A stretch of DNA of 58,817 nucleotides from an uncultured Candidatus Saccharibacteria bacterium (GCA_964481235.1 CAYZYH010000006.1:1-58817); one strand, 5' to 3'. Shown: positions 45,241 through 47,368, counted from the stretch's first letter. Numbers and translations are program-made. Notes: generated by a model from the sequence alone, not told the origin.

Positions 45241-45316
45241 TGGAGCCGATGAGCGGGATCGAACCGCTGGCCTATACTTTACGAAAGTATCGCTCTACCA
45301 ACTGAGCTACATCGGC
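45241..45316 (-). tRNA. tRNA-Thr (anticodon CGT)
   Basis: Acceptor GCCGAUG/CAUCGGC, D-arm GCUC-AGUUGGUA-GAGC, anticodon arm AUACU-UUCGUAA-AGUAU, T-loop GGUUCGAUCC, and an encoded CCA. Confidence 0.85.
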
Positions 45317-45820: not shown

Positions 45821-46249
45821 TTACCATGTTTCTCGCTCGGCAATTAAATTTGCCCTAGCCTGCTCTTCAAATATCTTATAAAAATGGTCTGTAGAGAATA
45901 TTCTATCTCTAGACAAGAACCTATCAATAAAGGCATTACGCCCAGAGCTTTGCTGAGAAGCTGGGCCTGCTTGATGCATAGGTAGCCAATGCGATTTTCC
46001 GTCAATCACCATCTCGTAACGTGGAAACTCCAGGTCTAACCAATGATTTTCGCGCTCGAGTCGTCTTACGACTTCGTCAATTACCAACTGTGCTGCAGCA
46101 TCTACCGATGCGTCAAACACAACTCCGGTATCTACTACTCCACTATCAGTAAGTTCACGAGCTGCGCTTACTGCGGCTTCTCGCCATTGCTGCTTCAGCC
46201 TATCTGTCACTAGCGCCGTATCGGCCATCTTACTCCTTTGTGTAGGCAC
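45821..46249 (-). CDS. Hypothetical protein (142 aa)
   Basis: ORF whose stop/start (ATGA) overlaps the upstream hydrolase gene. No motifs recognised. Confidence 0.4.
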   Translation of the reverse strand: MPTQRSKMADTALVTDRLKQQWREAAVSAARELTDSGVVDTGVVFDASVDAAAQLVIDEVVRRLERENHWLDLEFPRYEMVIDGKSHWLPMHQAGPASQQSSGRNAFIDRFLSRDRIFSTDHFYKIFEEQARANLIAERETW

Positions 46250-46890
46250 TAAGTAGTATAACTGTCTTTTAAGCCATGTAAAAGCCTTGTCAAACCAATT
46301 ACTACTCCCGTAAGGTGTCCAATAACCAACATGCGATGTTGCTTAACACCTTCAACGCTCATAGTATCTACTGGTACAACCCAATCTAGGAGTGGCTTGT
46401 AGATGGTGATTAACTGCTTGTCTTGCGCTGTAAGTCTGCCCACAAACTGCTCGTCACATTCTACCACTGAGTGTAAGTAGGCAATACTCGGTCTTTTGTT
46501 TTTTCTATGTAAAGCAGTGTGTATTAGGTGGTTTCTATCACCTTGTTGCAGACGACCACTAATACAAACTAGGTTAATATCTGCGTTTGGCAGATCTCTT
46601 CGCAACTCTACAAAAACCGAGAGTGCTAAGCTTGCCCCAGCGCTTATACCTACAAGGGTTAGTTGGTTGCTCTTTGTAAGAATTTCTTTGGCTTGCAATA
46701 CAACCTTTGATCGTAAATCTGTAATGTCGCCTTTGCCATGCCAATCTACGCCAGCAAAATGAAGACCTACATTTTTACCACTAAATAACCAGGCAAGTAG
46801 CTTTTCTGGCAAACCCACGTCTGTTCTCTCTAGGCCATTAATATAGAGCATTTGCAAAAGAGAACTTGGATGATTTTTTTTCAATTGCAC
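46249..46890 (-). CDS. Alpha/beta-hydrolase fold protein (esterase/lipase-like)
   Basis: GxSxG nucleophile elbow (GISAGAS) with the downstream D/H pattern expected for the fold. Confidence 0.55.
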   Translation of the reverse strand: MQLKKNHPSSLLQMLYINGLERTDVGLPEKLLAWLFSGKNVGLHFAGVDWHGKGDITDLRSKVVLQAKEILTKSNQLTLVGISAGASLALSVFVELRRDLPNADINLVCISGRLQQGDRNHLIHTALHRKNKRPSIAYLHSVVECDEQFVGRLTAQDKQLITIYKPLLDWVVPVDTMSVEGVKQHRMLVIGHLTGVVIGLTRLLHGLKDSYTT

Positions 46891-46991
46891 TCTCTACCTC
46901 TTGGCAAATTGTAAAAGAACTAACGACACCTAAAATACCATATTGATACACATTAATCAACAAAAATAAAAACCAGAATTTTGTTCGAGCT

Positions 46992-47220
46992 AACTGGCTT
47001 ACTTCGTTCTATCGCCGGTTCGAATACAAGCAAACACTTCAATAAATAAAAACATCCCTAATGGGATGATTCTATTTACTGGCGGGCCCGACCGGATAGC
47101 GCTTGAACTTTGTTCAGACTAACCGGCCCACTTCGTTCTATCGCCGATTCGTGATCAGCAATCAGTTTTTAATAACAGCCCTAAGGGACTGTTCTCAAAA
47201 ACTGGCGGGCCCGACCGGAT
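46992..47220 (-). repeat. Two tandem ~100-nt imperfect repeat units, each ending in an exact 19-nt copy of the tRNA-Asp 3' end
   Basis: Unit A is 46992-47097 and unit B is 47121-47220. They share a similar start (AACYGGCYYACTTCGTTCTATCGCCGRTTCG), an internal palindromic hairpin (CATCCCTAATGGGATG / CAGCCCTAAGGGACTG), and the 3' segment CTGGCGGGCCCGACCGGAT. Unit B's end is the authentic tRNA-Asp 3' end. Confidence 0.7.
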
Positions 47221-47279
47221 TTGAACCGGCGATCTCCTCCGTGACAGGGAGGCGTGTTAGGCCTCTACACCACGAGCCC
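47203..47279 (-). tRNA. tRNA-Asp (anticodon GTC)
   Basis: Acceptor GGGCUCG/CGGGCCC (one G-U pair), anticodon arm CCUCC-CUGUCAC-GGAGG, T-arm CCGGUUCAAAUCCGG, discriminator G, and an encoded CCA. Confidence 0.85.
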
Positions 47280-47368
47280 AGGGTTTTGGCACAAACTAAC
47301 CTGATAATTTTACCAAATATTACCGACATTTACAATAAAACACCCCAGGTAAATACCTGAGGTGCAAA

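Follow-up and report, generated by a model that had tools for sequence, protein, structure and literature searches.

The segment that lies 3' of a tRNA-Asp gene in this uncultured Candidatus Saccharibacteria bacterium appears, with a probability of roughly 0.55, to be a tandem pair of miniature, recombinase-less derivatives of an integrative element of the large serine recombinase (LSR) family that targets the tRNA-Asp 3' end. The term window is used here for the whole stretch of DNA that was analyzed (58,817 nt). The case is built from sequence comparison and draws on the anatomy of the repeats, the homology of their hairpins to the ends of LSR genes, the variable content of the locus in a relative, the overlap of LSR genes with tRNA genes, and a 5-nt ladder of spacings at the putative recombination sites. 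The order of events, mobilization in trans, and any present-day activity are points that we infer from these patterns.

The array consists of two units of about 125 nt, each made up of a copy of the tRNA 3' end (a 19-mer), a hairpin, and a structured arm called X. The units stand head to tail with about 80% identity and few indels. On the tRNA strand the order is the tRNA with 19-mer 1, hairpin 1, X1, 19-mer 2, hairpin 2, X2, a remnant of a third copy, and then the promoter and coding sequence of a 213-aa gene. The features are as follows.

47307..47335, minus strand: promoter-like site 5' of tRNA-Asp, TTGTAA-17-TAAAAT with TG (consensus scan only)
47203..47279, minus strand: tRNA-Asp(GTC), intact, CCA encoded (ARAGORN; Rfam RF00005, 62.1 bits)
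47202..47220, minus strand: 19-mer copy 1, part of the functional tRNA (exact match)
47174..47201, minus strand: hairpin 1 and its leader (local alignment to an LSR gene end; alignment to the relative L005)
47098..47165, minus strand: X1, structured arm (repeat comparison and pairing)
47079..47097, minus strand: 19-mer copy 2, exact (exact match; spacing of 33 nt measured by hand)
47035..47078, minus strand: hairpin 2 (47053-47068) and flanks, terminator-like (terminator scan; alignment)
46976..47034, minus strand: X2, second structured arm (83% identity to X1 over a 47-nt repeat, 46976-47022)
46961..46975, minus strand: remnant of a third 3'-end copy, TGGTTTTTATTTTTG (sequence reading; alignment)
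46249..46890, minus strand: 213-aa gene with weak alpha/beta-hydrolase similarity, the first conserved gene past the variable segment

The 19-mer is repeated exactly, and the repeat extends beyond it. The sequence CTGGCGGGCCCGACCGGAT has two exact matches in the 58.8-kb window (47079-47097 and 47202-47220), and none of 100 shuffles contained even one. The copy within the tRNA comprises the last 2 nt of the T-loop, the 3' strand of the T-stem, the 3' strand of the acceptor stem, the discriminator, CCA, and 1 more nt. The other is found 3' of the tRNA, in the same orientation and at a distance of 123 nt from the first. A preliminary description of this DNA had given each of two tandem units of about 100 nt an exact copy of the 19-nt tRNA end; the two-copy array is real, but its units are about 125 nt long, and only one exact copy is extra, the other being the 3' end of the tRNA itself. 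Its expectation of a repeat larger than the 19-mer was borne out by direct-repeat pairs at 47047-47097 and 47170-47220 (76% identity) and at 46976-47022 and 47105-47151 (83% identity), with a period of 123-129 nt. The divergence is too great for Tandem Repeats Finder, which did not call the array. Logan assemblies L001 and L002, which come from other samples, carry this segment in identical form, so that three independent assemblies agree and the array is not an assembly artifact.

Each unit has a structured arm that pairs with the tRNA 3'-end copy beyond it. X1 contains a helix (GAAUCGGC/GCCGGUU), followed by GGCCGG-U-UAG, a top hairpin (UGAAC AAA GUUCA), CUA-U, and pairing into the next 19-mer. 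Between GTTCAA and the 19-mer, X1 has exactly 5 nt (AGCGC) more than the tRNA. X2 has a compensating change, G to A and C to T, within its GCCAG...CUGGU helix. Only CTGGT and a T-run are left of the third 3'-end copy (about 46961-46975), which forms a stem with X2 that is followed by a U-run. The fragment at 47011-47025, complementary to 47219-47233 at 14 of 15 positions, had been described as an inverted piece of the T-arm in each unit. It is present, with a weaker copy at about 47140-47151, but it is no independent fragment of a tRNA: it forms, with a T-stem-like GCCGGTT inside each unit, a conserved helix of which it is the 5' strand. Of the 16-nt palindromic hairpins ascribed to both units, the one at 47053-47068 is perfect, with a 6-bp stem and a 4-nt loop, and the one at 47174-47193 is imperfect. 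The second 19-mer reads as a displaced or element-borne tRNA 3' end, forming a putative attR-type junction with hairpin 2.

Comparison with a relative shows that the variable DNA is located 3' of tRNA-Asp. A single related genome locus was found, L005, from a Candidatus Saccharibacteria MAG. Positions 56497-47187 of the window are colinear with L005 5869-15119 at 83-85% nucleotide identity, and this stretch includes the methyltransferase and neighboring ORFs. The homology ends 16 nt past the CCA of tRNA-Asp and restarts at window position 46944 (L005 17480), at the promoter of the 213-aa gene. Between these breakpoints the window has 243 nt, containing the two units, and L005 has 2361 nt (2.36 kb). 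Since the break is 3' of CCA and the islet on the other side is colinear, it is the 3' side of the tRNA that varies. The repeats are the sign of a hotspot for recombination at the tRNA-Asp 3' end, with variable content between syntenic flanks. The earlier interpretation of the repeats as att-site scars was thus largely right in kind, and the variation in cargo that it foresaw among relatives is found here, but the cargo and the enzyme that it implied were wrong. It had taken a GC-richer islet of methyltransferase, AlkB-like, and small Cys ORFs as the cargo. This islet (47.3-49 kb) is 5' of the tRNA and, by the alignment with L005, is conserved DNA that is unrelated to the repeats, neither cargo nor variable.

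The 3' side of the locus has been invaded in L005 and turns over in other strains. The L005 insert begins with a recombinase remnant and sits between the tRNA and an older unit made up of a terminator, X, and a core (3'-end copy). The far end of the L005 island is different, with an attP-type tail (W-RGLVVTLRT) that matches the tRNA end over no more than about 8 nt. The island therefore ends in an arm of its own, and X could belong to an entity other than the LSR lineage of L005. Loci L044 and L091 share 97.8% identity in the sequence before the tRNA and differ by one whole unit, so that units do turn over between near-identical strains. The terminator of the extra unit in L044 is unlike that of the neighboring unit, and the extra unit is therefore no recent local copy.

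The recombinase at this site belongs to a family of large serine recombinases whose genes run into tRNA genes. At the start of the L005 insert is an ORF of 127 aa, oriented opposite to the tRNA, and its frame continues into the antisense tRNA as ...ECSQNADW-RARPDLNRRSPP. Profile scans of this ORF with Pfam and PHROGs gave no match; the remnant was identified only by sequence searches. A word-indexed search found short relatives only, one of them named 'site-specific recombinase, partial' by NCBI. An exhaustive HMMER search found 1743 relatives, many of them 497-540 aa long and matching over the C-terminal 140 residues or so. In Pfam, the full-length relatives P0021, P0023, P0024, and P0026 all have the Resolvase and Recombinase domains, and three of the four have Zn_ribbon_recom. 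By this domain content, which is known from full-length relatives of the L005 remnant and from no protein in the window, the relatives are large serine recombinases.

C-terminal tails such as WRARPDLNRRSPP and WLRELDSNQRPRS are translated antisense tRNA 3' ends, and the tails of these proteins fall into two classes. The first has the form W-L-P/R-x-L-D-S-N-Q/R-x-P (or WRARPDLN...), in which the antisense tRNA 3' end is translated and TGG corresponds to CCA; it represents the integrated state. The second has the form W-L-P-L-x-D-x-L-R-T-E..., and a TTCGAAC mirroring the T-loop is 5 nt further from TGG; it can be read as the attP state. The genes abut tRNA-Asn in L006, L009, L131, and L132 and tRNA-Asp in L005, L053, and L082. 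Those beside tRNA-Asp are full length in L053 and L082, and L005 carries the remnant only. In addition, L071 has a full LSR against the tRNA-Asp 3'-end 25-mer at a contig edge, where no full tRNA is callable. An integrase with tRNA-Asp specificity had been proposed as a thing to look for, and it is represented in relatives by the LSRs that abut tRNA-Asp, although the search for an LSR in the window found none. Look-ups for full-length LSR elements gave contigs of only 2-4 kb, in which none could be delimited whole, and no intact one ending in an X-type arm was obtained. Both absences count against the LSR-remnant reading.

Both hairpins of the window are remnants of the 3' end of an LSR gene, amounting to about 40 nt in each unit. 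Hairpin 1 (TTTTGAGAACAGTC, 47200-47187) matches the last LSR codons of L005 and L006 (TTTTGAGAACACTC) at 13 of 14 positions (shuffle p = 0.002). The LSR segment that adjoins those codons (AGGGTGTTTTTAGATTGAAATG) is matched in colinear order by hairpin 2 and its tail (AGGGATGTTTTTATTTATTGAAGTG, 47059-47035; shuffle p = 0.01), and the two hairpins match each other (shuffle p = 0.0005). Both are without the 13-nt loop of the LSR hairpin, both are 5 nt closer to CCA than in the LSR genes, and both are joined to X via homologous sequence. The shared deletions and the shared junction suggest that both units come from one internally deleted element that was multiplied later. The preliminary description had envisaged successive independent integration and decay; the same derived deletions in both units point instead to a single ancestral unit that was already miniaturized. 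Hairpin 1 probably serves as the terminator of the tRNA, though its T-tail is weak.

The spacing of motifs at these junctions is consistent with the sites of a serine recombinase. Spacing was counted from the T-loop motif GTTC to TTGAGAAC across CCA, the motifs being inferred from sequence. It is 28 nt between the tRNA and hairpin 1 of the window; 33 nt at the tRNA/LSR junctions of L005, L006, and L132; 33 nt between the X1-19mer 2 region and hairpin 2 of the window; and 38 nt at the attP-type junction of L007, an LSR with a class-2 tail. The value for hairpin 2 was measured by hand because its motif ATAGAATC is outside the mismatch limit of the scan. The attP half-sites of LSRs reportedly have a distal motif 5 bp further out than those of attB, and a ladder of 5 nt per half-site is expected for LSR attB, attL/attR, and attP. 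The 28/33/38 series fits attB, attL/R, and attP in that order and supports a putative LSR origin of the junctions.

One rung of the ladder counts against the reading of the units as LSR remnants. The junction between the tRNA and hairpin 1 is of the attB type (28 nt) and not of the attL type (33 nt) that is expected from direct integration. The attB-type spacing beside the tRNA results from a 5-nt deletion next to CCA (CAAAATGCTGATTGG in L005, CAAAAACTGG in the window), which may be an accident or may regenerate a usable target. To our knowledge, LSRs are not expected to integrate at an occupied, attL-type site without other factors, and this also speaks against the LSR-remnant reading.

If the units are nevertheless derived from an LSR element, their history may be outlined as follows. 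In the intact relatives, an LSR gene encoding about 500 aa adjoins the tRNA on the opposite strand, with a TGG codon as the antisense of CCA and a hairpin in the last LSR codons that probably terminates the tRNA transcript; after integration the LSR reading frame runs into the antisense tRNA. Each unit of the window retains a tRNA 3'-end copy, about 40 nt of the LSR 3' end containing the hairpin, and the far-end arm X, which abuts the next copy. A single internal deletion would have taken out the recombinase together with whatever cargo there was, leaving a unit of about 125 nt. This unit would then have multiplied, either by mobilization in trans with accretion at the tRNA or by unequal exchange between the 19-nt copies. 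The tRNA-proximal unit would be the younger, and the middle 19-mer would still be exact because it was the working tRNA end until that unit arrived. The decay of the outermost 3'-end copy would fit its greater age.

The structured part of the units recurs at many other tRNA genes, and it belongs to a broader uncurated family that is not private to the genome of the window. A metagenome scan with the 3' 25-mer of tRNA-Asp gave 120 loci with about 111 distinct downstream contexts. At least 16 of the approximately 111 distinct loci have the same module layout, which consists of a terminator, a small hairpin, GAUUUGAACCGGC pairing with GCCGGUUCG, a structured insert, GCUA(A)U, and a tRNA 3'-end copy. 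The tRNA copy is often exact, and more loci have degenerate copies. Some tRNA-Asp loci have two or three tandem units, and in L059 and L067 there are 2.2 kb and 1.1 kb of genes, respectively, between the tRNA and a scaffold with an exact copy. The same scaffolds are found 3' of tRNA-Arg(CCT), tRNA-Thr(CGT), and tRNA-Pro(GGG), with the terminal 17-22 nt swapped for the 3' end of that tRNA. Identity to the local tRNA starts at about T-loop position 58-60 and always stops at CCA. One tRNA-Arg case (L004) is from the same sample as L001 and has a protein in common with the window.

Three forms of the scaffold can be distinguished, and the window has the short form. In the long form, 10 of 28 pairs have compensatory changes, compared to 4.2 +/- 1.4 in shuffles (none of 500 reached 10), and the pairing collapses in controls with slid partners. 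In the short form, X pairs with the beginning of the 19-mer in a 9-bp helix that has two compensated pairs, the compensation being in unit 2 of the window. The alignments used for covariation contain 7-9 sequences only, and the covariation is compatible with DNA hairpins as well. The conserved unpaired motifs and significant covariation of the long form are unusual for a decaying scar and argue against the remnant reading. The scaffold may be a functional RNA, a miniature element that is mobilized in trans, or a terminus conserved among other recombinase elements.

A somewhat unlikely explanation is that the unit is mainly a gene for a structured noncoding RNA tied to tRNA 3' ends, either a mimic of the T-arm and acceptor or a scaffold whose tRNA-matching 3' segment of 17-19 nt serves as a guide. 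The 19-mer would then be its working part, the copies would be paralogs, and mobility would be secondary. The recurrence of one architecture at tRNA-Asp loci, the matching 3' segments at tRNA-Arg, tRNA-Thr, and tRNA-Pro, and the covariation of the long form all favor this idea. So do the unpaired motifs common to the Asp and Arg units (CACGCRCAGA, CGAGCAUG, and GAGCGGAAAAG), the GCCAG/CUGGU helix of window unit 2, which is kept by a double change with the rest of the 3'-end copy gone, and locus L059, in which the scaffold-linked copy is exact and a nearer copy is degenerate. Against it, Rfam (Rfam 15) matched only tRNA in the window segment and in six long-form loci, and the upstream terminator leaves no room for a promoter before the unit. 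The strand is unsettled, since alifold energies are nearly equal (-19.7 sense, -20.1 antisense) and counts of G-U pairs favor neither strand clearly. About half of the units have a degenerate acceptor/CCA part despite an intact scaffold (L005, L063, L065, L077, L084, and L104), and units are gained or lost between near-identical strains. No gene for a partner protein (TnpA, TnpB, reverse transcriptase, or Cas-like) was noticed beside the units in the ORFs and gene tables read. Finally, the short form of the window is without the conserved motifs of the long form.

A broader proposal is possible but doubtful. In it, the terminator, scaffold, and tRNA 3'-end units of Patescibacteria would constitute a family of very small, self-contained modules, so far undescribed, that encode a conserved structured RNA and insert at about T-loop position 58/59 of many tRNA genes, and the units in the window would be short-form members and not inert scars. 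The scaffold RNA, whose 3' 17-22 nt equal the local tRNA 3' end, could act as a mimic of tRNA, or in a guide-like way could help the module or a recombinase to find tRNA genes. In other lineages the unit terminators show no similarity to LSR genes, and a reading of those sequences also found no GTTCRA '+5' signature; both points count against the LSR-remnant reading.

Local tandem duplication is an improbable source of the array. In this explanation the tRNA 3' end, terminator, and spacer were duplicated by slippage or unequal crossing-over and then drifted, with no mobile element involved in the multiplication. It would account for two head-to-tail copies with the same internal junctions, for which the 19-nt direct repeats could mediate unequal exchange, and for the degenerate third boundary. 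However, the copies of the 19-mer agree fully and their flanks at only about 80% of positions, and 19 consecutive matches at that level have a probability of 0.8^19 = 0.014 (range about 0.014-0.023). Duplication followed by drift does not explain an exact 19-mer beside a decayed outer copy without extra assumptions. It also leaves aside the homology between the hairpins and the end of a recombinase gene, the island with a recombinase remnant at the same junction in L005, the recurrence of the module at other tRNAs and in distant lineages with unrelated terminators, and the terminator of the extra L044 unit, which is unlike its neighbor's.

Scars of an element with the methyltransferase/AlkB-like islet as decayed cargo, as first proposed, and with a tyrosine integrase as its enzyme, are very unlikely: tRNA 3'-end repeats are classic for tyrosine integrases and GC content is 0.45-0.46 at 47-49 kb compared to about 0.35-0.42 across much of the window, but GC content reaches 0.48-0.51 elsewhere in the window, an element that duplicates a 3' end lies 3' of the tRNA and the islet lies 5', the islet is colinear with L005 at 83% identity, the recombinase at the site is a serine recombinase, and the tRNA identity does not cover the 7-nt T-loop, as would be expected if this loop were the overlap region of a tyrosine recombinase. 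Only the last 1-3 nt of the T-loop are shared (TTCAAAT compared to GCGCTAT or GCGCTAAT), and crossing-over by a tyrosine integrase in the T-loop was rejected for this reason. No tyrosine integrase was noticed among the genes of the loci examined by reading.

Several other candidates were considered and set aside. A known RNA family was rejected because the Rfam matches in the window segment and the six long-form loci were tRNAs only. The 3' 18-mer of tRNA-Asp is absent from IMG/VR, which disfavors a phage attP, and the scaffold motif had a single IMG/VR match, which is inside a coding region and was taken as chance. The units are not a degenerate second tRNA or a split or permuted one, as they contain neither the 5' strand of an acceptor stem nor a D arm or anticodon arm, and neither ARAGORN nor Rfam calls a tRNA in them. 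The antisense of the 19-mer has 18 nt complementary to the tRNA 3' end and thus resembles a retroviral-type primer-binding site, but no reverse transcriptase was noticed in the loci read. For a miniature element related to TnpB/IS605 the geometry fits, and no partner gene was seen in the loci read. A group I intron was rejected because no intron model matched here and the known ones are at another tRNA position. The group I introns of patescibacterial tRNA-Asp and tRNA-Asn are at position 35/36 in the anticodon loop (PMC13011429).

These results lay out for Patescibacteria a hotspot at the tRNA-Asp 3' end, a likely enzyme in an LSR family that also uses tRNA-Asn, and turnover of units at the strain level. 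No paper was found in the literature on integrative elements at tRNA genes in Patescibacteria. The LSRs seem to read universal features of tRNA, namely the T-loop GTTCRA motif and the CCA end. Because attB, attL/R, and attP can be read from the 5-nt ladder, target prediction for this family is testable. The covarying scaffold, found on tRNA 3'-end copies at several tRNAs, is not represented among curated families; should it be a functional RNA, it would be a new class tied to tRNA genes.

The units share features with several known systems. Like the cis-mobilizable elements (CIMEs) at ICE and IME att sites of Streptococcus, they are att-bounded DNA that has lost recombination genes and is stacked beside the target gene; att copies flank the units of the window, and recombination and transfer genes are absent from them. 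The CIMEs of Streptococcus are kilobase-sized and carry genes, and those systems use tyrosine integrases. We know of no conserved RNA-like scaffold described for them. The LSR att sites of the Listeria A118 type have a distal motif 5 bp further out in attP, and the spacings here are 28, 33, and 38 nt with inferred motifs. The 19-nt identity block is longer than the common cores known from characterized LSR sites.

Elements with tyrosine integrases that integrate into tRNA genes reportedly include a class with a sublocation in the T-loop. The array resembles this class in that identity begins in the T-loop and continues to the tRNA 3' end, with a displaced copy downstream; it differs in that the identity does not span the T-loop and the recombinase is of the serine type. 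The omega-RNA of TnpB has a conserved scaffold, a 3' segment matching the flanking target, and a short fixed motif before the target. The likeness of the units to it is one of form only, with a scaffold, a target match of about 17-19 nt, and TTCRA of the T-loop as the fixed motif, but no TnpB or TnpA was noticed beside the units in the genes read.

The closest described system is the family of ssrA islands in Dehalococcoides. In these islands (DsiB; McMurdie et al. 2011), a 540-aa serine recombinase on the reverse strand adjoins attL, and a direct repeat of about 20 bp, which begins in the T-loop and ends at the 3' end of the gene, has a conserved motif just upstream of each copy (PMC3146451). 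Several islands are stacked in tandem, and some are without an integration module (PMC3146451). The LSR on the reverse strand, the direct repeat of a tRNA-like 3' end, the motif before each repeat copy, the stacking, and the islands without integration genes are thus common to both systems. No second, small recombinase was noticed in the present loci. In Dehalococcoides the target is tmRNA, whereas here it is a true tRNA (Asp, and Asn in relatives), and here the LSR reading frame itself overlaps the tRNA in antisense. Unlike the Dehalococcoides islands, the units of the window are only about 125 nt long and have no genes, they are flanked by a scaffold with RNA-like covariation, and they belong to the lineage Patescibacteria.

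Structured units of the same kind, each repeating the 3' end of its local tRNA, also follow tRNA genes other than tRNA-Asp. They were found after tRNA-Arg(CCT), tRNA-Thr(CGT), tRNA-Pro(GGG), and one further tRNA, the last in L099. The units lie at the following positions.

L004:1192-1414, structured unit
L126:2326-2577, structured unit
L099:729-944 and about 3905-4125, structured units
L065:101-345, structured unit

L004 comes from the same sample as L001, one of the Logan contigs identical to the window. At tRNA-Asp itself, some units in L044 (+139 to +599 after the tRNA) and L120 terminate in CCGGCCAAAGCCCGCCA, a 3'-end copy of a different kind. Because this copy would not pair with the 5' acceptor strand of the local tRNA, its sequence hints that the units may have come from genomes with another tRNA-Asp. 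In many tRNA-Asp loci that lack units, the CCA is directly followed by a short motif, either AGCATAAGCA or the complementary TGCTTATGCT. One or the other occurs within the first 20 nt after tRNA-Asp in L042, L049, L050, L056, L059, L060, L067, L068, L095, L098, L100, L103, and L106.

Two further features of the window are listed here.

47103-47360, plus strand, listed 85-aa ORF, antisense to tRNA-Asp and unit 1
6323-6713, minus strand, tmRNA gene, tag peptide ANTLISKIKAAFTLPTLAPAYA

The ORF is almost certainly not a gene. For the tmRNA gene, the family searches revealed no 3'-end repeats. L001 and L002 end at the identical base, their position 1 being window 47232 within the T-arm of tRNA-Asp; the shared end probably reflects a break in the assembly graph, where organisms have sequence in common, rather than biology.

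A second indel separates the window (45952-45958) from the colinear relative L005, which has about 2.2 kb (L005:18448-20630) that the window lacks; tRNA-Thr(CGT) is close by (window 45241-45316). L003 and L004 share the methyltransferase protein but differ upstream of it, in positions 1-1500, which lie beyond about 56.5 kb of the window. S4 and EF-P genes stand there in one assembly; in the other their place is taken by NUDIX, HhH-GPD, and a tRNA-Arg(CCT) followed by a scaffold unit, a strain-level rearrangement at another tRNA.

Short C-terminal remnants of large serine recombinases (LSRs) occur on several unrelated contigs (L005:15057-15440, minus strand; P0002, P0005, P0006, P0007, and P0008). 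In alignment A3 they all start at the same residue, just ahead of ITLNDYDEY, and retain about the last 100 codons. Since they are cut at one shared point in different genomic contexts, random decay seems less likely than a discrete unit or a break point that recurs. Full-length LSRs of this family (P0018-P0162; L006:4059-4550, L009, L131, and L132) have their ends within antisense tRNA genes, with tails such as LDSNQRP and a TGG codon corresponding to the tRNA CCA. Closely related LSRs occupy either tRNA-Asn or tRNA-Asp, so it appears that this family switches easily between tRNA targets.
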